Source: a virus (Duplodnaviria > Caudoviricetes). Taken from it: DNA of 53,621 bases. The stretch's first letter is position 1, and each line of letters starts with the position of its first letter. Position numbers and translations under genes: made by a program. The stretch covers positions 1 through 53,621 of IMG/VR virus record IMGVR_UViG_3300028326_000230; one strand, written 5' to 3'. Below the pieces are notes generated by a model, which did no database searches, was not told the origin of the DNA, and saw only the letters and a list, made by a program, of their open reading frames with translations. Positions 1 through 34,351 of the stretch are shown in pieces.

Positions 1-56
1 TCGGCCTCGCGAAGGATGCCGACCATCTGCTCTTCCGAAAATCGTCCCTTTCTCAT
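1..56 (-). CDS. IS3-family transposase OrfA, N-terminus (partial)
   Basis: Manual translation MRKGRFSEEQMVGILREA matches the typical IS3/IS407 OrfA start. Confidence 0.85.
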   Translation of the reverse strand, partial: MRKGRFSEEQMVGILREA

Positions 57-125
57 GGCTCCCTCTTTGTCGTCGGGAGTCACCTTCTCAAGTTTCAGAT
101 GGTCCGAAAAGACCAGGGCAGGTCA
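1..125 (-). mobile_element. Left end of an IS3-family (IS407-like) insertion sequence, running off the window edge
   Basis: The minus strand starts TGACCTGCCCTGGTC at 125, an IS3-type 5'-TG terminus, followed by an RBS (GAGGGAG) and an orfA start at 56. Confidence 0.8.
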
Positions 126-178
126 GTACAGCAGGAACGCCACATGATAAAAGTCTGAATTTGAAACAGGATTTATCG

Positions 179-634
179 ATGAGAATTCTTGCAGGAATTA
201 TTGCCACTCTAGTTATCGCATTAATTCTATATATATTCTATTTCCTTCAAAAAAATGATACTTTGCTTGACGACGGCGCGACTGTAGAAGATTGCATTTA
301 CAATAAAACTAAAAATGTCACCACAGAAATTGCGAAAGGAATAGCAGTACGGAAGTGTCGGAAAAAATTTAAGGACATTGCGCAGCGAAATCATTATCTC
401 GCCATACTCAAGATCGAAAAATTACATTACCAACCACTCTGCGTGATAAATCTCGAAAACTTCCGAAACGAAAACAAAGACTACTACAGACAAGCAAAAT
501 TAATCGATGTAGCGGAAGATCTTTTTACCCGCTCAGGTTCTGAAGAATCAGGCGTGTCATTTGAACAATTTGCCATCGACAACAGCTTAGTAGACCAACT
601 TGCAAACGAAGCCCGTTCTGTTGGAATAAAATAA
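179..634 (+). CDS. Membrane-anchored hypothetical protein; its C-terminal domain is homologous to the N-terminus of the giant phage protein
   Basis: N-terminal TM helix (ILAGIIATLVIALILYIFYFL) and a Cys-x20-Cys segment. Residues 96-147 of the TTG-161 ORF align ungapped to giant-protein residues 3-54. ATG 179 or TTG 161 start. Confidence 0.75.
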   Translation: MRILAGIIATLVIALILYIFYFLQKNDTLLDDGATVEDCIYNKTKNVTTEIAKGIAVRKCRKKFKDIAQRNHYLAILKIEKLHYQPLCVINLENFRNENKDYYRQAKLIDVAEDLFTRSGSEESGVSFEQFAIDNSLVDQLANEARSVGIK

Positions 635-824: not shown

Positions 825-1763
825 ATGAATACAAAACAAAAAGTTTTTTTTCGTCGGGTCATGCTTGTAGCCGGTATTCTTCTTATATTTTCATTTGGTT
901 TTTACATATATCCTTTTGTCTTTAAAACATTTCCAGAAATAGATATCCGGATACGCTCAATAATTGTCATCTTAATCAGTATTTCAATAAGTATTGCAGC
1001 GGTAGCGCTACAAAAAAGTATCGAAAAGAAAGGAGAAAAAAATGAATTTCTTGAGATAGACTTCCGAAATTCACCATATAATCAAAAAAAACAATTAGTA
1101 TCCCTACAGGAATATATAAAAAAATTAATTGCACAGAATGACAACAAAAATAATGCAGAACTAATTGCAACAATAAATGAATTAAGCAACGCTAAAGTTG
1201 ATGACAAAACATATGAAAAATTTGAAAAATATTTTAAGTCAATAATTGATAAAATTGAGCAACAGATATCAGTTGCAGACGAAAAATCATCAATATTACT
1301 AAATCGTGGAATCCTATATGCTAAATTTGGAATCACTTTTTTCATTTTCAGCATAGCAGCATGGCAAATATTGAGCTTAATATTTCAATTTCATGAACAT
1401 TTTATTTACGGGATAATATCCTGCTCCATTCTATTTATATTTGTTGAATTTATTAGCGCTTGGTTCCTAAAACAATATCGTTGTTTTATTGACACTTCAA
1501 CATATCTAATTAAAATCAAATCAATATTTGATAAATACTTTCTTTGCTATATGTTTACAAAAGAGACAAAAACGTCCAACCAACACATTCAATGTATGTT
1601 AGATATTTTAAGTGCGGAAATCAAATGGCCAGAATCATATCTGTCCAAGAAAATGGATAATGGCTTCGCAAAAGAAGCAATGGAATCCATGACTTGTTTT
1701 TTTGAAGCCATGAAATCTCAAACAAAAGAACTAAAAACAAAAAAAGCTGAAAACGATAATTGA
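825..1763 (+). CDS. AT-rich hypothetical membrane protein (2 TM, coiled-coil, 2 TM)
   Basis: 312-aa ORF with four hydrophobic segments flanking a Lys/Glu-rich helical region. Confidence 0.75.
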   Translation: MNTKQKVFFRRVMLVAGILLIFSFGFYIYPFVFKTFPEIDIRIRSIIVILISISISIAAVALQKSIEKKGEKNEFLEIDFRNSPYNQKKQLVSLQEYIKKLIAQNDNKNNAELIATINELSNAKVDDKTYEKFEKYFKSIIDKIEQQISVADEKSSILLNRGILYAKFGITFFIFSIAAWQILSLIFQFHEHFIYGIISCSILFIFVEFISAWFLKQYRCFIDTSTYLIKIKSIFDKYFLCYMFTKETKTSNQHIQCMLDILSAEIKWPESYLSKKMDNGFAKEAMESMTCFFEAMKSQTKELKTKKAENDN

Positions 1764-1905: not shown

Positions 1906-2274
1906 ATGCACCTCCACCTAGTTCCCTGCGGAATATATCAAAATAAAGGGCCAATTCAAGCACAAAATTTATACTACTCCCAACGATTTATAGACGCAAA
2001 AAATCATTGCACAACGAAAGGACTATTATGGCGCATCATTTCGACAAAGCATAACCTGCTCGATCCAACGACGGTAATAGCAAACTACAATACTCCTATT
2101 CCTATCACCGGTACTCAAAACTATGCAAACTGGTTAAGCACAATAATTTCTCAACTGGGAACTATCATTTCTACTAGTGACAATATTACTGTTGTTAATT
2201 CTACACCAAGTTTTGCACCCTTATTTGCTGATATCAAATTAATTTACAGCAATCTTGCTCTTATCTCTGTATAG
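1906..2274 (+). CDS. DUF6884-like protein
   Basis: Strong RBS (AAGGAG). The pattern LVPCG...AQNLYYSQRF...WRIISTKHNLLDPTTVIANYN resembles the DUF6884 consensus (A.DLY.S..F...ILSAKYGL..P...I..YD). Confidence 0.6.
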   Translation: MHLHLVPCGIYQNKGPIQAQNLYYSQRFIDAKNHCTTKGLLWRIISTKHNLLDPTTVIANYNTPIPITGTQNYANWLSTIISQLGTIISTSDNITVVNSTPSFAPLFADIKLIYSNLALISV

Positions 2275-2547: not shown

Positions 2548-3480
2548 ATGATCATTCATTCAAAGCCTTTTTTTCACGACGAGCACGCATCCATTGAAAA
2601 GCTTGAGCAAATTCTCTGGCCGAACGGGCCGGTTTGCCCACATTGCGGTGGAACCGAGAAGATATATCGGCTAAATGGTAGTTCTACCCGGGCCGGGTTG
2701 CTTAAGTGTGGACATTGTCGGAAACAGTTCACGGTAAAAGTGGGAACGGTATTCGAGTCCAGCCATGTGCCTCTCTACAAGTGGCTTCAGGCGGTCTACC
2801 TCATGTGCACCAGTAAAAAAGGAATCAGTGCGAACCAGCTCCACCGGACCCTTGAGGTGACCCTCAAAACGGCGTGGTTTATGGCGCACAGAATTCGTGA
2901 AGCCATGAAAGATGGCCTTATCCCCATGATGGGTGGAGAGGGGAAAATCGTGGAGGTGGACGAGACTTTTATCGGACGCGACTACACGATTAAACCCAGG
3001 GGGGATAAGCGTGGGCGCGGGTATGCCTATAAACATAAAGTTCTTGCACTTGTGGAGCGTGGGGGAAAGACCATCAATATGGTAATTGATGATCTTAAAG
3101 CTAAAACATTGCTGCCTATTCTAAAGGAGCAAATAGATCAGCAATCTAACATTACGACGGACGAAGCTAGTAAGTATGATGCCTTGAATAAATATTTCGT
3201 TGTCCATGACTTTGTGTATCATAGACAAGGTGAATATGGGTGTGGAATTATTCACCAGAACATTATTGAAGGATTTTTCAGTATCTCCAAACGAGGGATG
3301 AAGGGGGTTTATCAACACTGTACCCAAAAGCACCTTCATCGATATATTGCAGAATTTGACTTTAGGTATAACAATAGGGAAATTTCTGACATAGACAATC
3401 TTTACTATATCATTGGCGACATATCGGGTAAAAGGCTTATGTACAGGGACTCATTAATCGCTGTGGCAGTAGGAATGTAG
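2548..3480 (+). CDS. IS1595-family DDE transposase
   Basis: Zn ribbon CPHCG...CGHC, HTH (KKGISANQLHRTL...TAWFMAHRIR), catalytic VEVDETFIG / TTDE / NIIEGFFS, and YIAEFDFRYNNR. Confidence 0.93.
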   Translation: MIIHSKPFFHDEHASIEKLEQILWPNGPVCPHCGGTEKIYRLNGSSTRAGLLKCGHCRKQFTVKVGTVFESSHVPLYKWLQAVYLMCTSKKGISANQLHRTLEVTLKTAWFMAHRIREAMKDGLIPMMGGEGKIVEVDETFIGRDYTIKPRGDKRGRGYAYKHKVLALVERGGKTINMVIDDLKAKTLLPILKEQIDQQSNITTDEASKYDALNKYFVVHDFVYHRQGEYGCGIIHQNIIEGFFSISKRGMKGVYQHCTQKHLHRYIAEFDFRYNNREISDIDNLYYIIGDISGKRLMYRDSLIAVAVGM

Positions 3481-3482
3481 CC

Positions 3483-4292
3483 ATGGCTCATATTAAAATC
3501 AGAATGACCCTCGCTCGTGGATTGCCAGGAGTTCCTCTTGGCCATCTTTCCAAAGCTACGAAAGCTCTTGAAGATTTTTTGCATGTCCTGTCTATTGAGA
3601 ACGGGATAGAACTTGATCCTTGCAAATGGGTAGCTGAGTGCTTTAACGACAAGCACAGTGTTGCATTCAGCGCAATGAACCTTGACCAGTGCACTGACAG
3701 TCAGTTTATAGATTACAATAGGTCATTTGATTATGTTGCGAACTTTGATCCTTCCAAGGATGAAGTTTGCTATGTTTCCGGAGAGGTTATGGAAAAGTGG
3801 GTTGAGCTTGGTTCTAAGGCTCTGCCTGATATTCCAATTTATTTGGGATATTACACTACTCCATTATCTAAAAAAGCTAGGAGTGTACCTGCATTAAGCA
3901 AGAGTAAAGCCATGCGGTTGAAAAAATTTTTAACCGACAGAATAGTTTATAATACTACTCTGCTTTGTGAAATATCTTCTCTCCAGATAGATCAACTTTA
4001 CATAAACATTAGAGACGTTGCAACTGGACAAATTTTTAAATGCTATTTTGATGACGATAAGTATAAAGATATTTTGGGATCGATATACGACAGAGGTTCC
4101 AGGATATATATATCCGGCATGGTAACAGCCTTCCGCGTTGGACTAAAGGTTGAAAAAATGAAGCTTGAGAACTTTGAAACGGCTCCAGTTTATCAAGATG
4201 GTGATTTGGAAAAGTTACATGGTCTTTTTCCGGATATGACCGGGAAAGAATCTACTTCTGACTTTATAGACAAGGTCCGGCATGATGACTAA
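3483..4292 (+). CDS. Hypothetical passenger protein, possible antitoxin/partner of the PIN protein
   Basis: 269-aa ORF starting 2 nt after the transposase stop and overlapping the PIN gene. The C-terminal half is beta-rich (possible OB fold, inference). Confidence 0.7.
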   Translation: MAHIKIRMTLARGLPGVPLGHLSKATKALEDFLHVLSIENGIELDPCKWVAECFNDKHSVAFSAMNLDQCTDSQFIDYNRSFDYVANFDPSKDEVCYVSGEVMEKWVELGSKALPDIPIYLGYYTTPLSKKARSVPALSKSKAMRLKKFLTDRIVYNTTLLCEISSLQIDQLYINIRDVATGQIFKCYFDDDKYKDILGSIYDRGSRIYISGMVTAFRVGLKVEKMKLENFETAPVYQDGDLEKLHGLFPDMTGKESTSDFIDKVRHDD

Positions 4293-4875
4293 GAGCAAAA
4301 TATATATAGACTCGTGCTGTGTAATCAATTATTGCAAAGGAGAAACTAGAAGTAATTTAACAGAGGATGAAAAGAAAGATGTTTGGTTTATAAAAAGGAT
4401 GTTTTTAGCCAAATTTCATAATGATGTAGAAATTTTTACATCAGCATTAACTATAGCTGAATGTTTATATACGGACAAGATGACTTTTTCAGCAACAGAT
4501 GAAGAAAAGGAAATATTTAACAGGGTGCTTTTATCGGGTAGAATTGCACTATCTTACCCAGTTGACCACCTAATAGCATTAAAATCTCGTGATATTAGAT
4601 GGAACAATAAGATAAACATACGTCGTGGTGCTGACGGTGTCCACGTTGCGACTGCTGTAAACCTTAAATGCAATGAACTGTGGACCATTGATGGCAAGAT
4701 AGCGAAGGATGATGCTAGGAAAAAAATATTTTCTCAATATGGTTTGGCTATAATAAATCCGTCAAAAACATTATGTTTGCCAGATGAATATAAAAAGCTC
4801 TTGCTTACCGATAAAATTGAAGAGGGCATTAGAGATGGAAAAAGAAAAAAAGCAGAAGCAATCCAACCAGTATGA
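4282..4875 (+). CDS. PIN-domain (VapC-like) ribonuclease
   Basis: PIN acidic motifs IYIDSCCVI, SALTIAEC, ADGVHVATA and LWTIDGK. Confidence 0.85.
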   Translation: MMTKSKIYIDSCCVINYCKGETRSNLTEDEKKDVWFIKRMFLAKFHNDVEIFTSALTIAECLYTDKMTFSATDEEKEIFNRVLLSGRIALSYPVDHLIALKSRDIRWNNKINIRRGADGVHVATAVNLKCNELWTIDGKIAKDDARKKIFSQYGLAIINPSKTLCLPDEYKKLLLTDKIEEGIRDGKRKKAEAIQPV

Positions 4876-5075: not shown

Positions 5076-5759
5076 ATGTGTGGCCGATTCGCCCTTGCCA
5101 TCCCGCGACGGTTTGTTGCCGAAGCCGTAGGTCTTCCCGGACTCCCCGAGGTCCCCGACCGCTATAACATTGCCCCAACCCAGCTCGTGGAGGCGATCTA
5201 TGCCGACCGGCATGTCACACGTCGGGTGGCGGGTCTTTTTCGCTGGGGGCTTGTCCCATTCTGGGCCAAAGATCCAAAGATCGGGATCAAGTGCATCAAC
5301 GCCCGGATCGAAACCGTTTTTGACAAGCCGGCCTTCCGGGCAGCCATCCGCTATCGACGCTGCCTGATCCCCGCCCAGGGCTTCTACGAATGGCAGCATA
5401 ACGGCCCAGGGCACAAGGTGCCGTACTTTTTGACTCTGGAAAACGGCAGCGTCATGGTCATGGCCGGGATCTTCGAGCACTGGACCGGCCCGGACGGCGC
5501 CGTCCGCGATACCCTGGCCATTCTCACCCGCGAGGCCAACGGCGTAGTCCAGCTGCTGCATGACCGCATGCCCGTGATCCTGCCGCAGTCCAACCATGCC
5601 GCCTGGCTTGATCCTTTGCGTACAGCCCAGGCGGATATCCGGGACATCCTGGCAGCTCCATCCCCGCTCCTCACCGCAATCCCCATCGGTGCGCTCGTCA
5701 ACAGCCCCCGCAACGAGGGACCCGAACTTCTCACCCCCGTAGGCCCTCCACTTACCTAA
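5076..5759 (+). CDS. SOS response-associated peptidase (SRAP, YedK/HMCES family)
   Basis: N-terminal MCGRF, RYNIAPTQ, WGLVPFW, INARIET, RRCLIPAQGFYEW, HDRMPVIL, VNSPRNEG. Confidence 0.95.
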   Translation: MCGRFALAIPRRFVAEAVGLPGLPEVPDRYNIAPTQLVEAIYADRHVTRRVAGLFRWGLVPFWAKDPKIGIKCINARIETVFDKPAFRAAIRYRRCLIPAQGFYEWQHNGPGHKVPYFLTLENGSVMVMAGIFEHWTGPDGAVRDTLAILTREANGVVQLLHDRMPVILPQSNHAAWLDPLRTAQADIRDILAAPSPLLTAIPIGALVNSPRNEGPELLTPVGPPLT

Positions 5760-5775
5760 AATTGCTTATGATAAT

Positions 5776-5787
5776 GAACAGCTGTTT
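5776..5787 (+). promoter_or_regulatory. Putative LexA-type operator (GAAC-N4-GTTT) in the umuD promoter
   Basis: GAACAGCTGTTT, with core palindrome AACAGCTGTT, lies between TTGCTT (5762) and TATAAT (5787-5792) upstream of umuD. Confidence 0.5.
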
Positions 5788-5830
5788 ATAATTATAGACA
5801 ACAGACCAGGCTTCCTTCTATGAAGGGGCC

Positions 5831-6259
5831 ATGCAAGCGTTGACCTTTTTACCCCTGGCCGCCCCAACCCGGTTGGCTCTGCCCCTCTACTTATCGCCAG
5901 TCGCGGCCGGTTTTCCCTCGCCAGCCGAGGACTATATCGACCGGAAACTCGACCTCAACGAGCAGCTTATCCGCAACCCGGCGTCCACGTTCTTTGTGCG
6001 CGTGGACGGCGACTCCATGCGCGACGCCAGCATCGCTTCCGGTGACATCCTGGTGGTGGATCGATCCCTGGCCCCCCGCAACAACGCCATCGCCATCGCC
6101 GCGATCAATGGCGAGCTGACCGTCAAGCGTCTGAAAAAAGTCCTGTCACGGCTGTGGCTCGTGCCCGAAAACCCGGAATTTCCACCCATCGAAATCGTCC
6201 CGGAAATGCAATTCGAGATCTGGGGCGTAGTCACCTACATCATCCACAAGGCGGTCTGA
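5831..6259 (+). CDS. umuD: DNA polymerase V accessory subunit UmuD (S24 autopeptidase)
   Basis: VAAGFPSPAEDY cleavage site, FFVRVDGDSM (catalytic Ser), TVKRL (catalytic Lys). Confidence 0.95.
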   Translation: MQALTFLPLAAPTRLALPLYLSPVAAGFPSPAEDYIDRKLDLNEQLIRNPASTFFVRVDGDSMRDASIASGDILVVDRSLAPRNNAIAIAAINGELTVKRLKKVLSRLWLVPENPEFPPIEIVPEMQFEIWGVVTYIIHKAV

Positions 6260-6261
6260 CC

Positions 6262-7539
6262 ATGGCCCGGGTTTTCGCCCTGGTGGACTGCAATTCCTTT
6301 TACGCGTCCTGCGAAAAGGTCTTTGTCCCGGCCCTGGCCAGGCGGCCGGTGGTTGTGCTCTCGAACAACGACGGCTGCATCGTGGCCCGCTCGGCCGAGG
6401 CCAAAGCCCTGGGTATTCCTATGGGGAAACCGCTTTTTCAGTGCCGGGACCTTATCCGCTGCCATGACGTGGCCGTATTCTCGTCGAACTATGCCCTGTA
6501 CGGCGACCTCTCGGCCCGGGTCATGGCCACCTTGGCCAGATTCACACCGGAACTGGAAATATATTCCATCGACGAGGCGTTCCTGGAGTTAACCGGGATG
6601 TCCGAAGACCTGACCGCCTATTGCCTTCGCATTCGGGAGACGGTCAGGCGCTGGACCGGAATTCCGGTCTCCATCGGTATCGGTCCAACCAAGACCCTGG
6701 CCAAAGTCGCCAACAAGCTGGCCAAACAATATCCTCGCCTGGACGGCGTGCTGGATCTGACCGGGCGTGCCGACCTGGAACCGGTCCTGGCCCGGGTTGC
6801 CATCGATGATGTCTGGGGCATTGGCCGGCGCTACGCGGCCATGCTCGAAAAGTATGGCGTACGTACGGCGTTGGACTTCTCTCGGTTGCCCCGGGACTGG
6901 GTCAAAAAGAAGATGACCGTGGGCGGACTGCATACGCTGCTGGAACTGCAAGGCGTATCCTGCCTGTCCCTGGAGCAAGCGCCGGCGCCGAAGAAATCCA
7001 TAGTGTCCTCGCGCTCCTTCGGCGAACCGGTCACGACCTTGGCGGACATGCGCGAAGCCCTGTCCTGGCACGTGTCCCGGGCAGCGGAAAAACTGCGGGC
7101 ACAACGGGGACTGGCCTCCTCGATCCTCGTCTTCGTGCAGACCAATAAATTCATTGCCGGAGAACCGCAGTACGCCGCATCGGACTCGACAGCCCTCCCG
7201 ATCCCCACCGCCTACACCCAGGATCTGCTTCAGGCCGGCCTGGGCCTCCTGGAACGGCTTTTCAAGCCGGGCTACCGCTACAAAAAGGCTGGCGTCATGC
7301 TGGTCGGCATCGAACGGGCATGCGCTGTCCAGGGATCACTGCTGGCGTTGCCGGAGGAGGCGGACACGCGGCGCAAAGCGCTCATGACGGCCCTCGACCG
7401 GGTTAATTCCCGATGGGGGCGCGAAGCGCTAAGGCTGGCGGCCACAGGAATCAAACGATCCTGGACCATGCGCCAGGAACGGCGCTCGCCGAGATATACC
7501 ACGATATGGTCTGAACTTCCGGTGGTCAGGGCAAGGTAA
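6262..7539 (+). CDS. umuC: Y-family DNA polymerase V catalytic subunit UmuC
   Basis: FALVDCNSFYASCE, VLSNNDGC, YSIDEAF, and C-terminal W.MRQERRSPRYTT. Start reassigned to ATG 6262. Confidence 0.95.
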   Translation: MARVFALVDCNSFYASCEKVFVPALARRPVVVLSNNDGCIVARSAEAKALGIPMGKPLFQCRDLIRCHDVAVFSSNYALYGDLSARVMATLARFTPELEIYSIDEAFLELTGMSEDLTAYCLRIRETVRRWTGIPVSIGIGPTKTLAKVANKLAKQYPRLDGVLDLTGRADLEPVLARVAIDDVWGIGRRYAAMLEKYGVRTALDFSRLPRDWVKKKMTVGGLHTLLELQGVSCLSLEQAPAPKKSIVSSRSFGEPVTTLADMREALSWHVSRAAEKLRAQRGLASSILVFVQTNKFIAGEPQYAASDSTALPIPTAYTQDLLQAGLGLLERLFKPGYRYKKAGVMLVGIERACAVQGSLLALPEEADTRRKALMTALDRVNSRWGREALRLAATGIKRSWTMRQERRSPRYTTIWSELPVVRAR

Positions 7540-11369: not shown

Positions 11370-14300
11370 CTATCTGGCAAATTGGGCCGCCCGGTCCATT
11401 GCCTGACGCTCTCTCTCGCGAAGAGCCTCCATCCTCCTGGTCTTCATCGGTTCGGGCAGGCGCGACTTCTGCACCTTGCCCATTTCGTCATGTACCGCTT
11501 GCACTCGATTAACCAACAGACGCAAGCGCGGCAAGCGGGATTCGTCGCGCACCCGCGCCGCCCCGGTCAGGTCGCCGTCCGCGCGCAGCGCGTCATAGCG
11601 TTCCTTGGCCTGGGCATAGGCCCGGCGCACCGCATAGTACGGATGATCGAGCCCGGCGATATCGCCTTCGGTCAACGCTTCGGCTGGCTTCTGTTCGCCG
11701 CCGGACAGCCTGTCCCGCTCGCGCTTCGTCGGCTGCGCCAGGCGTTCGGTCTGCCGCAACAGGGTCGCCCGGGTGATATACGACACGCGCCCCGAAAGTC
11801 CGGCTTCGGCTACGTCCCGGTTGTAGGCGGTCACCGCGTCCACGATTGCCGCCCGTTCGGCCGCGTCTTTCCCTCCGGACAAGGCAAAGGATCGGAACCG
11901 CGCGTACAGCCCGTCGCGACGTTCGGTGTAGCGGCGTTCCTCGTCGATGGCCTCGCTCGTCCGCTCCCTGGCCCGGGCTTCGCGCACCGGCCGGAAGCCC
12001 AAAGCCTTGGCCGCGGACTCTCCGGGAGTCGGCACAAGCCGTTTCCCGTCCGCATCGAAAACGGGATAGTTTTTCGATGTCGAAACGCCCTGCTCGGATT
12101 CCCGCACCGCTTGCAGGATCTTCGACACTCCGGTCGGCAGCAGCTTTTCCAATCCGCGCCCGGGCTGGCCGCCGGCAACGTATCCCAGCCCCTGGAGAAC
12201 ATCCCGCCCCAGGCCGCCCATGGGACCGAGCACATCCACCCAGGTATCCGGGATATCGATCATGGTGCCGATCGATCCATGCAGGTCCGACCCGGTCACG
12301 AGCCCAAGCAGGCCGAACCGGGCCAAATCCTCGGCCCCCTCGCCCAGGTTGCGCCTGGTCCAGTCGTACACCCATTTTTCCGGGTCGTCGTCCGATCCGG
12401 ACGCCGCGAAAATCCCTTTCACGAGCGAGGTCAACACCTGGCTTCCGATGCCGCCCAAAACAATGGGCGCCCCCAAGGCGTAGGTCGCGGCCTGCCAGTC
12501 TTTTTTGGCGAACAACTCATGGATCATTTGCAGGTAGTTGTGGCCGTACTTTTTGTAGACGTACCACGACTGCCCCAGCCGTGACCCCATGCCGGTTCCC
12601 CAGGTCCAGGCCGGTTGCGTGGCCCGGTCATAGACGCCGTGCGCCCGGTCGCTCGTTTCCCTGGCCCGGGCCATGGCCGTGGCATGATCGGCGCCGGCGC
12701 CCCGGGCCAGCCGATACGCCGCAAGCAGCGTCGAGCCCCGGTTCAGTTGCTCCGTCGCCCCGAACAGGGCCATGGTCTTGCCCATGAGCCAGGACCAGGT
12801 CTTGCCGGCCGTGTCGCGGTAGACGGACAACGCCTCCCGCGCAAACTGCGGATCATCCAGGGATTCGCGCCGCACCAGGTCCAGGAATTTTTGCTCGTCC
12901 GCCGAGAACCCGCCCCACTTGCCGGTCATGCGTCCCAGATAATCCCACATAGACCGGGCCACCTCGCGCCCGATCTTGGCCCACCCGCCCTTGCCTTCCA
13001 GGGCATAGGCGTGCAGGGCCGCCGGCACCGACGTGGCCATGGATGAGACGTTGACCAGGGCCGACCGGGGATTGAGACCCAGGTATTTCAGGCTGGCCAA
13101 CGATTTGGCCAGGGAGAACACGCGGTCCCCGGCTTCGGCGTTGCGCAGGTTCTCGGCCAGGTAATCCACCCCCAGCCGGTAGACCTCGCGCTCCTTGCGG
13201 ATATCCACGCCCGGGGCCTCCTTGGTCCCGAACAGGGTCTTGGTCGCCTTGCCGGCCGCCTCCATCTTGGCCAGGCCATAGGCCGTGTTCCCGGCGTACC
13301 GGGCGAACCGCTCCACGGCATCCTTGAAATAACCCTGCACCGCTTCGCCGTGGCGTCCAGTGCGCCGGATGGATTGCGCCCGGAACCCGCGTGCCTTCAA
13401 ATCCTCGGCCAGGTTCTCGACCAGCTCTTCGACCATGGCCGCGTCCACGCCGTCGCCGGCACTGCGCCGGGCCGCGCTTTCCACGGTCTTGGCCAGCTCC
13501 AACGCCTTGACCACCTGCTGGGTGGCCTCGGGCAGCTTTTCCAGCCGGGACACCGATTCCATGTTCCAGCCGTCCCGGGCCATCTTGGCCCGCAACGCCT
13601 CGGCCCCGGCCCGCCACTCCTTATGGGCGCGGAATCGCTCCACCGTGCCGTCCTCGCGCTCGCGTTGCCCGCGCACCACATACTCGCCCGTCTCGCGCAA
13701 ACGCGGGGCGTAGAACCCCTTGAGCTGGCCCATGCGCTCCACGGCTTCGGCCAGGGAGAGCATGACCGCCTTGCCGGACTCGTCCACGAACCGCACGTCG
13801 GCCAACTGGCCTTTGATCGTGATGCCTTCCTTGCGCGCCTTGCCCACTACCTCGCGCACCGTCTCGGCATGCGCCCGCAACTCCCGGGGCAGGCTTTGGT
13901 CCTTGTGGTAGGCGGCCGCGTCAAAGGTCTTGGACGCTTCGGCCGGCACGTCGGCCGCGACCAGGCGCCGCCGGATCTTGGCCTCGTACTGCTTGCGGGC
14001 CTGGTCGATCAGATCCCGGTAGGATTGCAACCGCGCATCGAGGAGCATGTCATAGCGTTCGCGCATGGTCCGCCAGAGGCCGATGGTCGCCTCCGTGGCG
14101 CCATGTTCCTTGAACCAGGTCTCCATGGCCTCGGGGCGGATCTCGTTCACATCGGCGTAATCCACGCCGTCGTTCAGGATCTCGCGCTGCGCCGTATCCT
14201 TGAGGACGTCCTTGGCTTCCTGGAGGATGGTGCGGTCTCCGTCCAGGTCAAAGGCCTTGTGGAGCAATTCGTGGGCGCGGTCGGTGCGGTCGCGGAACAC

Positions 14301-17300
14301 TTCGTACAACCGCTTGAGTACCGGATGCTGCCAGTATTCCGGGGAACGGAGGATTTTCCCGAGCACGGCGGTCTCTTTGAACTTGTCGCCGACCGCCGGC
14401 AGGATGGAGCGCACATGGGCCGTGGCTTCGTCGCGGAGCCAGTCCTTGAGCTTGGACGGTTCCTCCGGCACGCCAGTCAAGGCGCCGGCCCGGGCGTAGC
14501 GGACCGTTGTCTTGACTCCATTCAGAAGATGACTTACGGAAATAGTGTCTTGGCCATCGCCGCCAGGAACTGGTGAGCCGGTCGCAGGTTCGTTGATCCG
14601 CTGCCCATCGGGCATGTCACGGACAGGTCGGGCCGGCTCTTCCATTTCCGTCAGGGAATGGTCATAGAGCTTACGGCCGTCCGCGTACTCTTTCACCGTC
14701 AACTTGACACGGGCAAGACCCTCCCCAGTCCGCAACGGCGCGTACAGGCGATGAATGGCCTTGATATGCGGATCACCGGCTCTATCCGGTTCCGTGTTCG
14801 CCAGGACCGCCTCCCTGACTAGTGCCGGCATAACCCGCATCGCCTCATAGTGCAGCCGGTCTTCCCGTTGGCTTGTCTGCTTGGCGACACGGCTCCGCGT
14901 AATCTCGATATCCCAGCCCGTTTGTTCATTGCGGTAGATGCCAGGGAGATTTTCAACCGCCCATTTTCTGGCCTCCCGTCGCAGTGCGGCGATATTTCCC
15001 GCCTCGAATCGCTGTTCGGGCAAGGAAACGACCCGGACAGCCCTCTCTCCGTCCCGTCCTTCTTCGCTCCGGGCATAGGCCAACGACGGCGCCAAGGTCC
15101 GTCCCAGCGGCGCCACATAATCAAGCCCCTTGCCATCCACGAAATCATCGGCCTGGGCTACGAGCTGGCGCAATTCCGCCTTGGTCAGGGACAGACCCGG
15201 GAAGATCGAGCGCACCCATTGCGCGACCTTGGCCAACAACCGGTCCAGGGCGCGGTGCACGGTGCCGTCCTTGGCCCACGTGGCCAGGATTTCTTCGGCC
15301 GCTTCGGCCCTGGTTTCGCGTGTGGACTCCAGGCCGGCGCGCCCCAGCCATTTGGCGACCTCACGCGGCATGCTCCGTGAGGCCTGAAGCATAAAATCCT
15401 GGCGTCCGTCAGGCCCTCCCAGCATCAGATCAAAGGCGCCGTGCCGCCCCTCATGCCGCAGCAGCCCTTGGACGAAAGCGGTCTGGCCAGCCTTTTCCGA
15501 AGGGATATTGCCGGAGACAAAAACCATACGCCTGGAGTCCGGATCATAAGCGCCGAAAAACTGGCCGGAAACGCCGTCCCGCTCGACTCTCTTGCGTATG
15601 GCCGCCGGCAGGTCCGCCTCGGATTCGTAGATATCCACGATCCCGGCCAGGGCCGGCACCTGCCGCAACCCCTGCCGCAAGCTCTCGGACACGGCCCGGG
15701 CCATCCGCTCGATGCCGCGCGTGGGTGAACCCTGCCAGGCCCGTTGCAGCATAACCGGCGCGCCATCAGCCTCGTCTTCGCCATCTTCCCCGGCTTCCTT
15801 CGCTTTTTCCAGATCTTCGTTCTTGGCCGCCTTCAGTTCGGCCTCGACTTGGCGCAATCGCTTGCTTGTCTGCTGAAACTCTTCTTCCCGGGAGAATTTC
15901 TCCTCCACCAGCTTTTCCAGGGAAACCGCCGACTGTTGCGCCCGCTCGACCGCATTCTGAATGTTCTCCGGCTCCCTGGCGACACTCTCCAAGCCGTTGT
16001 TGAAGCTCTGCACGAACCCGGTCGGCGTATTGAAATTCTTTGAAAAAAGTTGATCTTTTTTCTTGTCGAGAACTTCATATTCCCCGGTCAGCATAACGTC
16101 GGTCACGTTGGCCATGCCATCGGAGCGATTCGAGTCGGCACCCACCGCCCGGGATGAAACCGGGGTAATGGTGGCCACGACCTCATACCCGCCCGTCTCG
16201 AATCGAACCGATCCGACGAACTTTTTGCGGACCGACTCGTAATGCGCGACGGTCCCTCCGACAGTCTCCTTTTCGAGGCGTTGCTTCACGCCATCATACC
16301 AGGCCGTCAGTTTGGTCGTAAAATCCTTGCGGTCGAAATTCCCGTCCTTGAGTGTGAACTTTTCCGCCTTGAGGCCAGGGAAAGCCTTGCGCAGCTGTTC
16401 GGCAGACGCTTCGGCCACCTTCAGGTTCGTTTCTAGTCTCGGGATCTGGACTTCCCGCAAGGCGTTCAGCTGGTGGATACGGGCGGCCTTCTCATCCTGA
16501 AACGCCTGGCGCAACCGCCCCAGGTCGCGGACATGGCCTTCCAGCTTCACACGCTCCATGGCCAAGGGATTGCCCGAGAAGGCGGCCATCATGTCCTCGA
16601 AGGACAATTGTACGTCGTCGAAGGGGTTCTCCATCACGTCCCCGTCGATCTCACCGCGCAACAACTGATTGATAAACTTCTGCTTGTTCTGGAGGATGTT
16701 GAAGCTCACGGAGTCCAAGGTGTTCTTCACTCCGTAGGCCAGAATCTCCACCTTGGAAAACATGTTCCCCTGACGTCGGATGCGCCCGTTGCGCTGCTCC
16801 CAATCCATGGGACGCACCGGGGGCGAGAGATGATGCAACGCCTGCAGGCGTTCCTGGATGTTGACTCCAACACCGAGCTTTTCTGTGGACCCCATCACCA
16901 CCCGCACGTCGCCGGCATTAACCGCCGTAAAAAGCTTTTCCCGGTCCTTCTCGTTGTAGTCGTAGATGATGGCGATTTCCTTGGCCGGAATGCCCTTGGC
17001 CACCAGCTTACGCTTCAGGTCCTTCCAGATGTTGAAGCTCTTGTCCGAGGATTGGTAAATGTCGCTGAAAATCGCCTGGGCCGCGCGCTTGTCCGCATGG
17101 GCCACGTAACGCTTGTAAATCTCGTCGGCCGCCGCCTCGAGCTTTCCCCCGGGCGCCTCGGCCAACTTTGGATTGACCAGGCGCATGTCCAGGGCCGCCT
17201 TCTGGGCCAGGTTGTAGATTAAAAGTGGCACATGGGATTGCTGGCGTTTTTCCTTCCCTCCCAAGTTCTCCCATTGCATCCGCCATTGTTTGAGATGCTG

Positions 17301-23300: not shown

Positions 23301-24773
23301 CCGGCCCGGCTTGGCAATACCCAGGGAGGCGGCCAGCTCGTTCAGACCACCCTTGCCCATGCCAGCCAGCTCGTCGGCCCGGGTCGCCGCTTCCGTTCCC
23401 GGCTGCTCGGTTTCCGTCGCAGGCACGGCAGCGGGCGACTCCGGACCAGTCGGGAGGACTTGGCTCGTTCCCGGCGCGGGCTGTTCCTCAAGCGCATTGA
23501 GCGGGGCATTACGCCGCCGGAGCTGCTCGGCATTGAGTTCCAGCAACGCATCCCGCAGTTGGATACTGGGGTTGTCCTGAAACAGCTTGTTGGCCACGAC
23601 ATAGGCCTGGTCCAGATCCGCATCGCTCAGGTCGGCGTGCGCGCCGGCCTTGGTCGCATCGGAAATGGCCCCGGCATCGCGTCGCGCGGCAATGGCCCCG
23701 GGTCGAAAATGTTCCGCCGCGCCACCGAGGCCCATGGTGGCCAGGGTCATGACCGACGTCTGGGGTGCTACCTCTTCGAAGGCCTGGCCCCAGGTAGGCG
23801 CCTGGTCCCGCAAGCCGTGCTCGGCTTCGATGGCCCCCTGTTCGTGCTGGGTCCACGTTTCCGTGCCCAACTCCACCGGCAGATCCAGGCCCAACTTCAC
23901 CCCGGCCGACGCCATGGTCCGGGCAATGCCGTTTTTAATGAAGGGTACGTTTTTTACGATTTTCCCGACCGGTGTTTTCAGGATACCCCAGGTCAGGGCA
24001 TCCCCTACCGCTTCGGGGACAGCTTCATACAGGGCATATCGCGAAGCGATCTTGTTGATGGTCGGCTGAGCCTCGATCCACTGTGCATCGGTCAGGTTGG
24101 GGTTTTGTTTGAGCAACCACTGTCGGATATTATCCACGAACTGGTCCTTGGTCGCCCGGTAGGCCGTGCCCAAGCCCCCCATGGCCGCACCCAGGGCGCC
24201 GCCGGCCGCGCCGACCAACGAGCCCGCGCCCGGAACAACAGAACCGGCCGCCGCCCCACCCAGCAGACCGCCCACCATGGAACCCGCGCTGTAGCCCAGG
24301 TTCTGCAAACCTTCCTGGACGTCCTTGGCCTTGATGAGCCCGAACAATTCGCGGTCAGCTTCCTCGGGCGGTAGATTCCAGCGCTGCAAGTCTTTCTGCT
24401 GTTCGCCGATGACGCGGCCGGCAGCGGTCTCCTCCGGACGCAGCGGCACATCCCCGCCCCGCCAGGTTTCGGCCAAGGTCTTGGGCAGGACGTCGGCTGC
24501 GGCCGAATACAGGCCCTGACCGATGGTCTTTCCGGACAGCTTGATATCCTTCCAGACATCGGAGAGGCCATAGCCCGGCTCCTCGGCTTGGGGCTGCGCC
24601 TGAGGCTTACCCAACTGGGTATCCCAGCCGGCGCGATGGGAGTAATCCTCGAAGGTCTCGCCGGTATCCGCCGCTCCGGACCGGGTGTACAAATCCCTGG
24701 CCACGTCCTCGACGCCGGCCTGGCCGTAATACTCGGGGTGTTGATCCCGGAAATTGGCAAGATCAAGCGTCAT
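11370..24773 (-). CDS. Giant polyvalent virion-injected protein, DarB-like (~4467 aa): N6-adenine MTase + SNF2 helicase + zincin motif + LPD3-like domain
   Basis: MTase motif I EPAAGIGHF (~20340) and motif IV NVPF (~20145); Walker A HGVGAGKT (~18285), DEAH (~17790), EQRNGRIRRQGN; HEGRH (~15450). Start reassigned to ATG 24773, just after the upstream stop. Confidence 0.88.
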   Translation of the reverse strand: MTLDLANFRDQHPEYYGQAGVEDVARDLYTRSGAADTGETFEDYSHRAGWDTQLGKPQAQPQAEEPGYGLSDVWKDIKLSGKTIGQGLYSAAADVLPKTLAETWRGGDVPLRPEETAAGRVIGEQQKDLQRWNLPPEEADRELFGLIKAKDVQEGLQNLGYSAGSMVGGLLGGAAAGSVVPGAGSLVGAAGGALGAAMGGLGTAYRATKDQFVDNIRQWLLKQNPNLTDAQWIEAQPTINKIASRYALYEAVPEAVGDALTWGILKTPVGKIVKNVPFIKNGIARTMASAGVKLGLDLPVELGTETWTQHEQGAIEAEHGLRDQAPTWGQAFEEVAPQTSVMTLATMGLGGAAEHFRPGAIAARRDAGAISDATKAGAHADLSDADLDQAYVVANKLFQDNPSIQLRDALLELNAEQLRRRNAPLNALEEQPAPGTSQVLPTGPESPAAVPATETEQPGTEAATRADELAGMGKGGLNELAASLGIAKPGRIGREDLAAAILQAEEQARQWNAPENVDARYQEEHAAPFPTVQDQFLEGVAPAPGTASEAVQDPTRADELAGMGKSGLNDLAASLGIAKPGRIGREDLAAAILQAEEQARQWNASENVDARFQEAHAAPFPTTQDQFLEGVTPTPESPREPTRADELAGMTRLSLNELANGLGIEKPGKGKKDALISRILETEAQAEQPRAETAATEAPAQEPLAGSLAGPDTASAMPTREIPMVETGEPTAPVESPKPLAEKQPRPALVEQAPTEALPTGEIPMRAVGEVTETPAVREPISEAEAPATAAPAVEKPSPNAPVASVEAPQAPNVVAPQKQPGAASPAASTASQGSPGYRVVQEKGSTYVTTRRDNNMTVRHEVEGRVVSLDLPGFEDLQFVVHPNVQGKGWTVSEASTGLAASHSPTQNGAIDAAGEALLTVDPKTVMEGIARQVGKYGDAREGSAVAPQTRPAPAAPVETQTPVASPAPAAVTPAAPEGPRYALSLRETKHARKGHPLYVVTLDERMARPEYDQLKAAFSKEGGYWSSYKAQGAIPGIQFTDKAKAEAFLDRFGKKPVAPENPLPTQAALPNGQTPLPQQAQPAGGNTSSQSLGVNQRGQDVYADENGNRFLTENGIRIQAPVPVVPNQAGVETRPQGPEQLYRNGDHDYLTREEVSGFQKQERESVLAGPETGKPAGTEKTAAPKAKGNDHGTTDTGHPHADESALDVGLESASDLAVGERTPADVGAISGKPGRVEGSHRSQDVAVGQRPARPEEQGQTGGRGAGGDAGRGGAIERPGPKRGESAGTAAGKEGNANLEVGREPAAAKGYGIARRGVSRDHNHRIAPDDVLVPGGNAVRARANIEAIRLLKELEAADRLPTPDERKILAQFSGWGSLAEEVFKADIEQLANMFGDDIPPSVRRDYRKEALLERFDAWKRKYGELHPGIGGLLTREEWDAAKRSTLNAHYTDRQVITAMWDMVEQLGFAGGRVVEPAAGIGHFFGLMPEKLAQASDLRGVELDAVTGRLLGKLYPAADIQVTGFQDAKRMGSNTADLVISNVPFGDYPVHDKAHKDYSGWSIHNYFLARSLDVARPGGLVVAITSHYTMDTTKWGKIREYLAGKADLVGAVRLPGNAFAKNAGTEVTTDILILRKKDEHPFEGQPWRMVEKVDTPEGQAGINEYFVAHPEMVLGKHSLAGSMYGGKEYTVLPDKTRPMEKQFYEAVAHLPVDIMGDGVANQPLPSPDALGERADEGMKEGAYVLKDGHVLAVEDGRLVRPEWQEGGLAERRQAIAREYVGVKTAASDLVRTMLSEEASDADIAAGQATLARAYDAFVKKHGPFLENRSLKFLRDDVDYPNVLALEKKEERVGGGDKQAVIAKADIFTKRTLRPFTEPKTASSIEDAVKISILYRGRLDVGRIGELLAVPAVEAKRRLLETGAAYENPTTGLLETPQVYLSGNVRDKLQEAKVSAEGNQDYKRNVEALEAVQPTPKPISRIDARLGSTWIPDKTVAAFMAHLGVRQAQAVQTRTFSGEDGLSSWTVKGWLTDETRNRWTVNDTDLLRILEDSLNLKLSKAYRRVPDGDGTKREVDQNATLLVQEKQKALQAEFLKFVRETPAQAKELEALYDSNFGGQLPRQYDVPDVAHFPGAVEAVSLRDHQKRGVARGLQENTIFAHGVGAGKTYLVTTMAMEARRLGTARKPMIVVQGATLEQFASAFKRLYPAARVLAPDAEDRTRANRQRLLSQIATGDWDAVIVPHSFFNGLAISPERETAFIEEELSVLGAELKEAKADSSEKGKKSPRVKQIEKMILKREARLKSLLDARKDENIFFEDTGVDMLVVDEAHAYKRGDFVTKMDNVKGLDTDSSQRSMQLLLKSRYVMEKTGGKNVHLATGTPVSNTLAELWTMLRYIRPDLLERYHVTQFDDFASTFCATKTDIEETATGDYKPVTRFNRYQNLGELVSMWKAGADVVLAEDLDYIQDIPKIEGGRPSEISLERNPSLAEYIQHLKQWRMQWENLGGKEKRQQSHVPLLIYNLAQKAALDMRLVNPKLAEAPGGKLEAAADEIYKRYVAHADKRAAQAIFSDIYQSSDKSFNIWKDLKRKLVAKGIPAKEIAIIYDYNEKDREKLFTAVNAGDVRVVMGSTEKLGVGVNIQERLQALHHLSPPVRPMDWEQRNGRIRRQGNMFSKVEILAYGVKNTLDSVSFNILQNKQKFINQLLRGEIDGDVMENPFDDVQLSFEDMMAAFSGNPLAMERVKLEGHVRDLGRLRQAFQDEKAARIHQLNALREVQIPRLETNLKVAEASAEQLRKAFPGLKAEKFTLKDGNFDRKDFTTKLTAWYDGVKQRLEKETVGGTVAHYESVRKKFVGSVRFETGGYEVVATITPVSSRAVGADSNRSDGMANVTDVMLTGEYEVLDKKKDQLFSKNFNTPTGFVQSFNNGLESVAREPENIQNAVERAQQSAVSLEKLVEEKFSREEEFQQTSKRLRQVEAELKAAKNEDLEKAKEAGEDGEDEADGAPVMLQRAWQGSPTRGIERMARAVSESLRQGLRQVPALAGIVDIYESEADLPAAIRKRVERDGVSGQFFGAYDPDSRRMVFVSGNIPSEKAGQTAFVQGLLRHEGRHGAFDLMLGGPDGRQDFMLQASRSMPREVAKWLGRAGLESTRETRAEAAEEILATWAKDGTVHRALDRLLAKVAQWVRSIFPGLSLTKAELRQLVAQADDFVDGKGLDYVAPLGRTLAPSLAYARSEEGRDGERAVRVVSLPEQRFEAGNIAALRREARKWAVENLPGIYRNEQTGWDIEITRSRVAKQTSQREDRLHYEAMRVMPALVREAVLANTEPDRAGDPHIKAIHRLYAPLRTGEGLARVKLTVKEYADGRKLYDHSLTEMEEPARPVRDMPDGQRINEPATGSPVPGGDGQDTISVSHLLNGVKTTVRYARAGALTGVPEEPSKLKDWLRDEATAHVRSILPAVGDKFKETAVLGKILRSPEYWQHPVLKRLYEVFRDRTDRAHELLHKAFDLDGDRTILQEAKDVLKDTAQREILNDGVDYADVNEIRPEAMETWFKEHGATEATIGLWRTMRERYDMLLDARLQSYRDLIDQARKQYEAKIRRRLVAADVPAEASKTFDAAAYHKDQSLPRELRAHAETVREVVGKARKEGITIKGQLADVRFVDESGKAVMLSLAEAVERMGQLKGFYAPRLRETGEYVVRGQREREDGTVERFRAHKEWRAGAEALRAKMARDGWNMESVSRLEKLPEATQQVVKALELAKTVESAARRSAGDGVDAAMVEELVENLAEDLKARGFRAQSIRRTGRHGEAVQGYFKDAVERFARYAGNTAYGLAKMEAAGKATKTLFGTKEAPGVDIRKEREVYRLGVDYLAENLRNAEAGDRVFSLAKSLASLKYLGLNPRSALVNVSSMATSVPAALHAYALEGKGGWAKIGREVARSMWDYLGRMTGKWGGFSADEQKFLDLVRRESLDDPQFAREALSVYRDTAGKTWSWLMGKTMALFGATEQLNRGSTLLAAYRLARGAGADHATAMARARETSDRAHGVYDRATQPAWTWGTGMGSRLGQSWYVYKKYGHNYLQMIHELFAKKDWQAATYALGAPIVLGGIGSQVLTSLVKGIFAASGSDDDPEKWVYDWTRRNLGEGAEDLARFGLLGLVTGSDLHGSIGTMIDIPDTWVDVLGPMGGLGRDVLQGLGYVAGGQPGRGLEKLLPTGVSKILQAVRESEQGVSTSKNYPVFDADGKRLVPTPGESAAKALGFRPVREARARERTSEAIDEERRYTERRDGLYARFRSFALSGGKDAAERAAIVDAVTAYNRDVAEAGLSGRVSYITRATLLRQTERLAQPTKRERDRLSGGEQKPAEALTEGDIAGLDHPYYAVRRAYAQAKERYDALRADGDLTGAARVRDESRLPRLRLLVNRVQAVHDEMGKVQKSRLPEPMKTRRMEALRERERQAMDRAAQFAR
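20792..21196 (-). CDS. Out-of-frame gene nested within the giant gene (TnpV-like helical protein, tentative)
   Basis: Own RBS (AAGGA, 7 nt before ATG 21196), strong G/C third-position bias in this frame, and a globular-looking sequence. The host frame here is a G/R/A-rich linker. Confidence 0.65.
   Translation of the reverse strand: MAQPTPAIHTLTNPHWMWDWKAHLTWLLENEPRQTWERFLANRDELKEAIDRKTLQSANVQHDLKSKGRPEDAVQEAMLAVVAPSNGPALNAENPPEPLPEKKEMRIWRWVENLPPRKATVLPDGAYRETITTA
22720..23384 (-). repeat. Three intragenic repeats (273 and 261 bp spacing) encoding Rho_N/HeH-like helical modules
   Basis: TRADELAGMGKGGLNELAASLGIAKPGRIGREDLAAAILQAE-like units start at 23384, 23111 and 22850. Confidence 0.85.
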
Positions 24774-30272: not shown

Positions 30273-30715
30273 TACCATCTCCTCCCAAGCGAAAGGACAT
30301 CCACGCCCACGGCCGTCACCTCGGCCTGTCCCTCACCCGAAACCTCAAATTGAAAAGCCCCACCTTGACCTCCGCGCCCCGCGACAAAACACCCAGGCCG
30401 GAGTTGTTGCACAGCCGGGCTTGATCCATTTTCATAACGGATGGCCACACGGACATCCTCAAGCCTCGGCCCGGCCAAGGAAACCGCCCGCACCCGCTTG
30501 ACGTCATCGCGCCCCAAATCCGTTTCCGGCCCGGCGACACGCCAAAGAATCGGGTCTCCGGCGTCATCACCCCCCCCAATGCGATAGAGCCCATCGGGAG
30601 CCGTGGCATAAAAATGGCCATCCATTTGAAAGAAGGATGAAAACGGCCAACCACTATATTGGCTCGGAACCATTCCATCCAAAGCCAAGGACAAGCACAG
30701 CGTATTGCTGTTCAT
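30272..30715 (-). CDS. Phage tail-region protein
   Basis: ATGA-coupled ORF; SQYSGWPFSSF...GLYRIGGGDDAG...TDLG...KRVR pattern. Confidence 0.7.
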   Translation of the reverse strand: MNSNTLCLSLALDGMVPSQYSGWPFSSFFQMDGHFYATAPDGLYRIGGGDDAGDPILWRVAGPETDLGRDDVKRVRAVSLAGPRLEDVRVAIRYENGSSPAVQQLRPGCFVAGRGGQGGAFQFEVSGEGQAEVTAVGVDVLSLGRRW

Positions 30716-32881: not shown

Positions 32882-33511
32882 TTAACTAGAGAGAGTTATG
32901 GTGTCACCGAAGCGAGTAAACTTTGCATCAACACCAGTTTTTGATTTTATTGTGATTGTCTCACCATCATCAATATAATATTTAACTCCTGATACAAAAA
33001 TATACTCCGATGAATCTATAATAAAGTCGGAAAATTCTAATGAAGCTAATGGACCAGCCGTCAAAGACGACAAATCAACACCCGACGGGATAAGCGTTTC
33101 ACACTCCCACTCATCAAAGTTCTCAATCGGCGGTTGTCCTTTGAATTCAATTATTATTAATTTTCTAATGTAAAATGTATAAAATTTATCAATTATATAT
33201 GTATTTGATGTCCAATCCCAGCCTTGGTAAAAAAAGAAAAAAGAAGCGAATCCATCAAACGTAATTTTTATATTGTAGTTTTCATCTTCTCCTGTATCAG
33301 AATATATACATTTATAATCTGGAAGGTCATTCCCCATAACATATTCGCCCTGCGCAACAAGACTTTTGGGCGTTTGTGTCAGAGAAACCTTTGTCCCAAG
33401 ACTTGCGCTAGGAACAAAACTCGCTCCAATAGAACCAAGTCTAATGTCAATAGACGCAGGGAACCCAACAAACTGCAACGGCACTGACTCAGGGTATGGA
33501 AGTTTGTTCAT
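32882..33511 (-). CDS. AT-rich hypothetical tail/receptor-binding module protein
   Basis: 209-aa beta-rich ORF, translationally coupled, low GC. Confidence 0.7.
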   Translation of the reverse strand: MNKLPYPESVPLQFVGFPASIDIRLGSIGASFVPSASLGTKVSLTQTPKSLVAQGEYVMGNDLPDYKCIYSDTGEDENYNIKITFDGFASFFFFYQGWDWTSNTYIIDKFYTFYIRKLIIIEFKGQPPIENFDEWECETLIPSGVDLSSLTAGPLASLEFSDFIIDSSEYIFVSGVKYYIDDGETITIKSKTGVDAKFTRFGDTITLSS

Positions 33512-34338: not shown

Positions 34339-34351
34339 GTGTAATACCTAT

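Follow-up and report, generated by a model that had tools for sequence, protein, structure and literature searches.

We found that the product of a small gene near one end of a virus genome, a membrane protein of 151 residues (P0002), carries a homologue of the domain with which a giant virion protein (P0003) encoded in the same genome begins. The stretch of DNA analyzed here, hereafter the window, is an entire IMG/VR virus record of 53,621 bases that is classed as linear and estimated to be 81% complete (Table 1). Judging from the searches described below, the shared N-terminal domain (N-domain) of about 55 residues is an undescribed, so far unnamed family. It is a rare domain, and all the members encountered have one of two architectures, namely the extreme N-terminus of giant proteins and a position behind a transmembrane (TM) helix in small proteins. 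The small gene is a mobile, low-GC, repressor-linked accessory gene, and we propose, with a confidence just short of even, that its product is a candidate superinfection-exclusion protein that would display a mimic of this ejection-protein domain at the periplasmic surface of the inner membrane.

Table 1. Coordinates of the features discussed in the text (positions in the window unless another record is named)
Feature	Position	Strand	Basis
Terminal part of a presumed IS3-family element; transposase orfA start at 56, reading MRKGRFSEEQMVGILREA	1..126	-	Similarity, start sequence
P0002 small-protein gene, 151 aa	179..634	+	Start ATG 179; ORF 161..634
Predicted N-terminal TM helix (signal-anchor), about residues 3-25	185..253	+	Hydropathy
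Juxtamembrane helical segment between Cys39 and Cys60	293..358	+	Conserved Cys pair
Copy of the ~55-aa helical giant N-terminal domain, residues 90-144	446..610	+	Alignment, profile, fold model
312-aa multi-pass membrane protein	825-1763	+	Low-GC neighbour
DUF6884 protein matching PADLOC defence candidate PDC-M57A	1906-2274	+	PADLOC
IS1595-family transposase, 269-aa gene without family, 197-aa PIN-like gene	2548-4875	+	Same low-GC island
Giant polyvalent virion protein P0003, 4467 aa	11370..24773	-	ORF; Pfam; NCBIfam
PLxRFG 'tail-700' domain, residues 3687-4328	11790..13715	-	NCBIfam NF032893, 172 bits vs cut-off 100
Gly/Ala-rich hydrophobic, glycine-zipper-like stretch, residues about 162-204	24162..24290	-	Hydropathy
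Giant N-terminal domain, residues 3-58, homologous to the P0002 domain	24600..24767	-	BLASTP, alignment
Three genes just upstream of the giant: 533, 1297 and 149 aa	24775..30721	-	Order comparison with G001
MetMV 3002-aa hypothetical protein with subfamily-B domain	L010 (MK170447.1) 11995-21003		tblastn

The N-domain family

The two copies in the window are identical at 22 of 52 positions in a gap-free alignment of the two sequences, and all 22 invariant columns fall inside the 52-residue span; the coordinates at which the original prediction had placed this similarity, 446-601 and 24767-24612, proved exact. BLASTP aligned residues 90-132 of P0002 with residues 3-45 of P0003 at 20/43 identities and 34/43 positives (E 1e-11), and a degenerate DNA pattern derived from the motif matched the window at these two sites only, compared with 0 matches in 100 shuffles. 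A profile built from the two copies (h-D-L-x-x-Y-R-x-E-N-x-x-Y-Y-G-x-x-x-L-x-D-V-A-x-D-L-x-x-R-S-G ..., about 55 aa) was searched against 1,835,955,588 representative proteins and retrieved eight at E<=0.001, of which six were accepted (P0002, P0004, P0005, P0009, P0006 and P0010). The remaining two, P0007 and P0008, were dropped when their sequences turned out on reading to be low-complexity repeats. The match to P0002 itself (residues 85-151, E 4.5e-37, 141.8 bits) is a self-match, P0002 being in the profile; the independent family members score from E 1e-11 to 3e-4. The alignment that had been counted by hand is thus statistically significant. It is extremely improbable that the similarity arose by chance or that the small open reading frame is non-coding: the short length of the match is all that speaks for this, against the pairwise E value, the equally low profile E value obtained with the whole library, full-length homologues of P0002 with 46-61% identity in four other contigs, and a confident fold model of the domain (7-row alignment, pLDDT 86.9).

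Among the accepted proteins, the giants P0004 (4234 aa), P0005 (3141 aa) and P0009 (3445 aa) have the domain at residues 2-58. P0006 (153 aa) matches P0002 over its whole length, with 70/153 columns identical, and P0010 (332 aa), of which a longer form exists (P0012), consists of a TM helix followed by two domain copies. A word-indexed profile search added P0013, a fragment of a close relative of the resident giant; P0014, a small homologue on a 284-kb contig; and P0015, an N-terminal fragment of subfamily B (see below). Pattern scans of IMG/VR located giants in the records G001 (= P0005), G002, G004 and G005 and a small protein in G003, and tblastn placed the domain at residues 3-71 of the large protein of the metagenome-assembled virus MetMV. 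A pattern scan of metagenomes gave five matches; the contigs L005, L006 and L007 carry one and the same small-protein locus, which is therefore counted once, and L003 and L004 were rejected as chance matches. Altogether, the known set comprises four small single-TM homologues (P0002, the P0006/P0011 cluster, P0014 and the G003 protein) plus a single two-copy form, which keeps the statistics of their genomic context thin.

Outside this set, the searches were negative. A strict-motif scan of about 185,000 GTDB species genomes (one per species) yielded no true match, its single strict-pattern locus being rejected as a wrong-frame chance match in a Streptomyces contig. The subfamily-B pattern had 0 matches in IMG/VR; word-indexed searches with P0002 or with giant residues 1-70 returned the queries themselves only; a collection of 50,697 phage records contained no tblastn match to P0002 (E<=1) or to the first 158 residues of the giant; and no relative could be confirmed when viral and GTDB contigs were searched for related loci with alignment A1 or P0006. 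The N-domain matches no Pfam family at E<=1, the LPD families included, and none in NCBIfam or PADLOC. The Pfam families PF28554 and PF28555 are precomputed for P0003 and absent from the listings for the N-terminal fragment P0013 and for all the small homologues; accordingly, they probably do not cover the N-domain. Hence the domain is not widespread in unrelated non-phage proteins, across the 1.84 billion representatives and the GTDB species genomes alike.

The fold model depicts a small, all-helical bundle. Foldseek comparison of the model with the PDB had a best E value of 6, and the best Z score obtained with VIA-align against 48,161 chains, 4.7 for T4 gp33, is rated meaningless for small helical models; the ESM Atlas offered no usable match. 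The top match in BFVD was the first 1000-residue piece of a long viral protein (TM 0.78 on the query, E 0.04), which would be compatible with another giant.

In P0002, the domain is C-terminal, behind the TM helix and a stalk, and not at the extreme N-terminus as in the giants; this second architecture of the family, with the domain behind a TM helix, is common to P0006, P0014, the G003 protein and P0010. The predicted open reading frame exists, and its likely start is the ATG at 179, because the DNA similarity to the homologous locus L006 begins there and the homologues, which open with MK[IL/T]L, start at the equivalent methionine; initiation from the TTG at 161 is possible, though less likely. 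The hydrophobic helix and the Cys pair, which had been singled out in the original prediction, are both present. The helix lies within residues 1-26 (Kyte-Doolittle 2.68), with only Arg2 preceding it and an acidic stretch following, and the positive-inside rule together with the Cys pair predicts an N-in/C-out orientation. Cys39 and Cys60 are kept in 4/4 small homologues seen (P0002, P0006, P0014 and the L014 small protein) and form a putative disulfide; Cys88 of P0002 is not conserved. The single-sequence fold model of the whole protein is poor (pLDDT 60), and no family in PADLOC, NCBIfam or Pfam covers it. The GC content of the small gene is 0.37 versus 0.63 in the giant gene, in agreement with the earlier contention that the small gene is not a recent DNA duplication.

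The family divides into two subfamilies, A and B, each with giant N-terminal and membrane-anchored forms. The giants of subfamily A are the window giant, P0004, P0005/G001, G002, G004, G005 and P0013, with P0009 attached loosely (30-39% identity; in the tree, it branches from the stem of clade B), and the membrane-anchored forms of the subfamily are the four single-TM small proteins. Subfamily B consists of the MetMV giant and the fragment P0015 on the giant/N-terminal side and of the two-copy protein P0010/P0012 on the membrane-anchored side. The four single-TM proteins form one clade, with a local support of 0.89 that is weak on a tree of 58 residues, and are 32-53% identical to the subfamily-A giants, whereas the members of subfamily B are 56-58% identical to each other and 16-30% to subfamily A. 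By these identities, membrane-anchored forms exist in both lineages and resemble the giants of their own lineage. A special likeness to the resident giant is not supported: the P0002 domain is 38% identical to that of P0003 versus 39-47% to those of foreign subfamily-A giants. No closer to P0003 than to these, the domain was not copied from the resident gene, and exclusion directed at the virus itself is not indicated. The N-domains of P0013 and P0003 are about 56% identical, compared with about 88% over the next 95 residues (our own count; window 24000-24773, minus strand), which is suggestive, from this single pair of sequences, of fast change or exchange of the giant N-domain.

Giants bearing the domain

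The gene of the resident giant belongs to the virion module, where it follows the terminase, portal and major head protein genes on the same strand, and the products of 1297 and 149 residues encoded just upstream have counterparts in provirus G001, where their genes precede the giant in an unchanged order. Pfam recognizes LPD3 (1.9e-24), an SNF2-type helicase, N6_Mtase and three Rho_N domains in P0003, and its PLxRFG region is the part common to the internal virion proteins of the F116/H66 type; distant tblastn matches of the giant are to PLxRFG or DarB-like proteins of temperate podophages. PLxRFG scores over the cut-off in six of the eight full-length giants (those of the window, P0004, G001/P0005, G002, G004 and G005) and was not found in P0009 or the MetMV giant. 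Encoded in the midst of virion genes, the giants unite LPD1/LPD3, MuF_C, SNF2 and DarB-like methylase domains within a single polypeptide.

In the available part of the work of Hardies et al. (PMC4819975), H66 gp60 is described as a very large structural protein, a homologue of T7 IVP-D (gp16) with a methylase site, in which the IVP-D homology is combined with a domain whose action must take place within the cell. The phage record annotates the H66 gp60 gene as encoding a PLxRFG protein. Polyvalent proteins in general have been proposed to be injected along with the DNA, according to the accessible text of Iyer et al. 2017 (PMC5512222). Because its PLxRFG C-terminal domain ties the giant to the T7 gp16 homologues of the F116/H66 type, labelling it an injected virion protein, as was done originally, is reasonable; by homology, and by analogy with H66 gp60 and T7 gp16, the resident giant may be present in the virion and be ejected into the cell.

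Gly/Ala-rich hydrophobic stretches follow the N-domain within about 100-250 residues in 4/4 giants examined, including P0004 and P0005. In P0003, this stretch has a weak C19orf12-like Pfam match, and in P0005 it is labelled YcfJ-like by the source of the sequence. F116p59 has the Gly/Ala-rich stretch in common with P0015 and lacks the N-domain (0 matches), so that the N-domain can be regarded as an optional cap beside a probable membrane-interacting segment. The host of MetMV has been predicted, in silico only, to be an archaeon, Methanosarcina (PMC7164591, in the part available). Should this assignment be correct, not every member of the family can have a strictly periplasmic role, and the domain is not limited to viruses of two-membrane bacteria.

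Several other features of the giants and of the virion module were observed in passing. Residues about 460-690 of P0003 (window about 22700-23400, minus strand) comprise three tandem segments of about 90-110 aa, each with a Rho_N (HeH-type) domain, which are near-identical as read in translation. In P0009, the methylase-helicase pair and PLxRFG are replaced by a CLCA_X-like region and two GGDEF domains (diguanylate cyclase). Within the GC-rich virion module of the window, a low-GC block (0.34-0.41; 32882-36187, minus strand) contains genes for products of 209, 275 and 611 aa that matched neither Pfam nor PHROG families; the block may represent a defence moron or a host-recognition cassette that has been swapped. 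A gene for a patatin-like phospholipase (44683-45846, minus strand; Pfam 3e-25) is located between the portal and terminase genes, and a virion-module protein of 722 aa (30712-32880, minus strand) has transglutaminase-like and CEP76 peptidase-like matches below the Pfam cut-offs.

Genomic setting of the small genes

In the window, the small gene starts 52 nt from an element that we take to belong to the IS3 family and from the end of the contig; similarity to Burkholderia-type plasmid DNA ends at 125/126. Since the element is cut off by the end of the contig, what originally preceded the gene is lost and a linkage to a repressor gene would be invisible here; for the same reason, its status as a moron of this very prophage is uncertain. 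A scan of positions 1-2400 for promoters and terminators found sites no more often than in shuffles, and none upstream of the small gene. Downstream extends a low-GC island (GC 0.29-0.45) with a multi-pass membrane protein, a defence candidate, a transposase and further genes (Table 1). Between this island and the virion genes, GC-rich genes for an SRAP (SOS-response associated peptidase) protein and a UmuC-type Y-family polymerase are found (5076-7539, plus strand).

In two other types of loci, a conserved CI-type repressor gene precedes the small gene. In L005, L006 and L007, the small gene overlaps the end of the gene for a 172-aa product by 4 nt, and this product matches HTH_3 (34.7 bits, cut-off 23) and Phage_CI_repr (30.1 bits, cut-off 22). 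The next genes encode a Tin-like protein (PADLOC 2.6e-7), a pair of small membrane proteins, a TIR protein of 1728 aa and a fragment of a C5 methylase, and the surroundings in L005 look like a defence island. The contigs break in the end of a transposase gene, presumably of the IS5 type. The 1728-aa protein (L005 900-6086, plus strand) has an N-terminal TIR domain and DUF2963-type repeats. The other locus is in G003, a 98% complete provirus that is long-tailed by its tape-measure and terminase PHROGs. Here, a gene for a 184-aa repressor-type homologue (47% identity to the 172-aa protein, E 1.4e-34; no Pfam match of its own) is located upstream on the same strand, with one gene for a 153-aa membrane protein between it and the small gene; the locus occupies a patch of low GC content some 5 kb away from the integrase. 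G003 has no PLxRFG protein and no second copy of the domain, and in a BLASTP comparison with the window it shares nothing else beyond the small protein.

The distribution of the two kinds of genes bears on the possibility that the small protein is a helper that docks or receives the resident giant during the virus's own infection or assembly, which had been offered originally as the alternative to exclusion. Six virus records with a domain-bearing giant are available, namely the window, G001 (71% complete), G002 (99%), G004 (65%), G005 (49%) and the complete genome of MetMV, and the small gene is present in one of them, the window, and missing from the other five. Together with G003, which has the small gene without such a giant, this indicates that the small protein does not serve the resident giant. 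Co-occurrence of a TM-plus-domain protein with a giant that begins with the domain is accordingly seen in the window, and not in the other five records or in G003. A helper role has in its favour the presence of both genes in this one record; given that even the nearly complete G002 and the complete MetMV genome lack the small gene, and that in the window the gene differs sharply from the giant gene in GC content and lies outside the virion module beside IS elements, we consider such a role very improbable, and docking to the resident channel is not sustained.

Two further interpretations of the small protein may be considered. The tethered domain might be a sensor of the incoming giant N-domain, or of the damage it causes, that triggers neighbouring membrane proteins to depolarise or kill the cell. 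Small multi-pass membrane proteins indeed occur beside the gene, of 312 aa in the window, 153 aa in G003 and 149 and 154 aa in L005, and the islands are defence-like; however, these membrane proteins are non-homologous between the loci by BLASTP, so that there is no conserved effector partner, and the repressor-type gene is the only conserved neighbour. We therefore consider a sensor quite unlikely. Somewhat less unlikely, though still improbable in our estimation, is a generic module that binds some common component of the envelope, with which the giants would anchor there and which small membrane proteins of lysogenic conversion or regulation would use independently, in a role unrelated to exclusion, for example, to signal to the HTH regulator encoded next to them. 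A membrane sensor working with a regulator would likewise agree with the conserved association with an HTH gene, and the domain always adjoins a membrane segment, which is a TM helix in the small proteins and the Gly-rich hydrophobic stretch in the giants. On the other side, the domain appears in no ordinary cellular protein among the representatives searched and has no true strict-motif match in the GTDB species genomes, and the membrane-anchored forms track the giants within each subfamily.

A proposed role in superinfection exclusion

The observations behind the exclusion proposal are the homology itself, the rarity and the architectures of the family, the membrane anchor, the repressor linkage, the IS-flanked, low-GC, defence-like islands and the occurrence of the small gene without a giant. 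Under this proposal, P0002 would be a bitopic inner-membrane protein composed of a signal-anchor helix, a short helical stalk with the Cys pair and the helical domain facing the periplasm. The giants with the N-domain, most of which have PLxRFG, would leave the capsid with the DNA and help to build or use a trans-envelope conduit. Expressed together with the CI-type repressor from prophages, in the lysogen, the small protein would exclude superinfecting phages whose ejection protein starts with the N-domain: the tethered copy may occupy a periplasmic or membrane ligand needed by the incoming N-domain, or may trap a phage partner, and the assembly of the conduit or the transfer of DNA across the inner membrane would then fail. 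The original suggestion of a decoy has gained the repressor linkage, the defence-like neighbours and a carrier without a giant in its support; from these, we infer the C-out topology, the expression in the lysogen, the competition for a ligand and exclusion itself. The predicted complex of the giant N-domain with the P0002 domain, computed with no controls, scored 0.00 and argues neither for nor against binding.

A wider generalization, plausible but appreciably more tentative, is that tethered mimics of the giants' leading domain, encoded in prophage repressor operons, form a class of entry-blocking factors, with diverging N-domains and at least two origins of mimics. If so, the prophages that carry them would be of unrelated types, the giants would respond by rapid divergence of their N-domains, and the mimics would have originated at least twice, in subfamily A with one copy of the domain and in subfamily B with two copies.

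Prophage membrane proteins that block entry are already known. Examples are HK97 gp15 and T4 Imm and Sp, small proteins of prophages or phages that are anchored in the membrane and block the entry of DNA. By description, P0002 resembles them in being small, membrane-anchored and proposed to act at entry, and to our knowledge none of them is a copy of an ejection or tape-measure domain of the excluded phage. Phage lambda rexAB and other exclusion genes are co-transcribed with the repressor, and Rex acts by abortive infection, not by an entry block; the homologues of the small gene similarly follow a CI-type repressor gene in the same orientation, but have no sequence relation to rexAB. The window giant, for its part, has the PLxRFG domain in common with the F116/H66-type giant homologues of T7 gp16 (IVP-D). 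The N-terminal domain of T7 gp16 is a transglycosylase that acts in the periplasm and provides a precedent for a periplasm-acting N-terminal module. In contrast to T7 gp16, the module described here is a helical one of 55 residues without an enzyme signature or a PDB relative, and F116 is without the N-domain.

The closest comparison in mode of action is with SieA of phage P22, an inner-membrane exclusion protein of the prophage against which escape mutations arise in the ejection proteins gp16 and gp20, as reported in the abstract of PMC10883804. For SieA, the block of DNA entry has been shown experimentally (same abstract), whereas for P0002 the same mode of action is proposed. The two proteins differ in that the tblastn search with P0002 (E<=1) matched nothing in the phage collection, which we assume to include P22, and in that P0002 is defined by its copy of an ejection domain, a likeness of which the abstract of PMC10883804 makes no mention for SieA. 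P0002 has one strong N-terminal hydrophobic helix, and its location in the inner membrane is predicted. As regards expression in the lysogen, the homologues of P0002 follow a CI-type repressor gene, the upstream region in the window being cut by the IS element.

In their many-domain composition and their place among virion genes, the giants resemble the polyvalent proteins of phages and conjugative elements (PMC5512222, in the text available), from which they differ in the N-domain, which belongs to none of the Pfam families. The terms transmembrane, glycine and decoy are absent from the main text of that article as available. In a limited search of the literature, parts of which were accessible only in abstract, we found no entry-blocking protein described as a homologue of the excluded phage's own ejection-protein domain.

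How short-tailed phages pass their DNA and giant cargo across the cell envelope is poorly understood, and so is the block of that step by prophages. The presence of one 55-residue module both on the tip of an ejected giant and on a repressor-linked membrane protein provides a concrete, testable handle on these processes. The module points to the portion of the giant likely to contact the envelope, predicts where escape mutations would be located, and may be used as a small bait for the ligand in the host or the phage. Furthermore, it adds an undescribed domain to the catalogue of polyvalent-protein modules.
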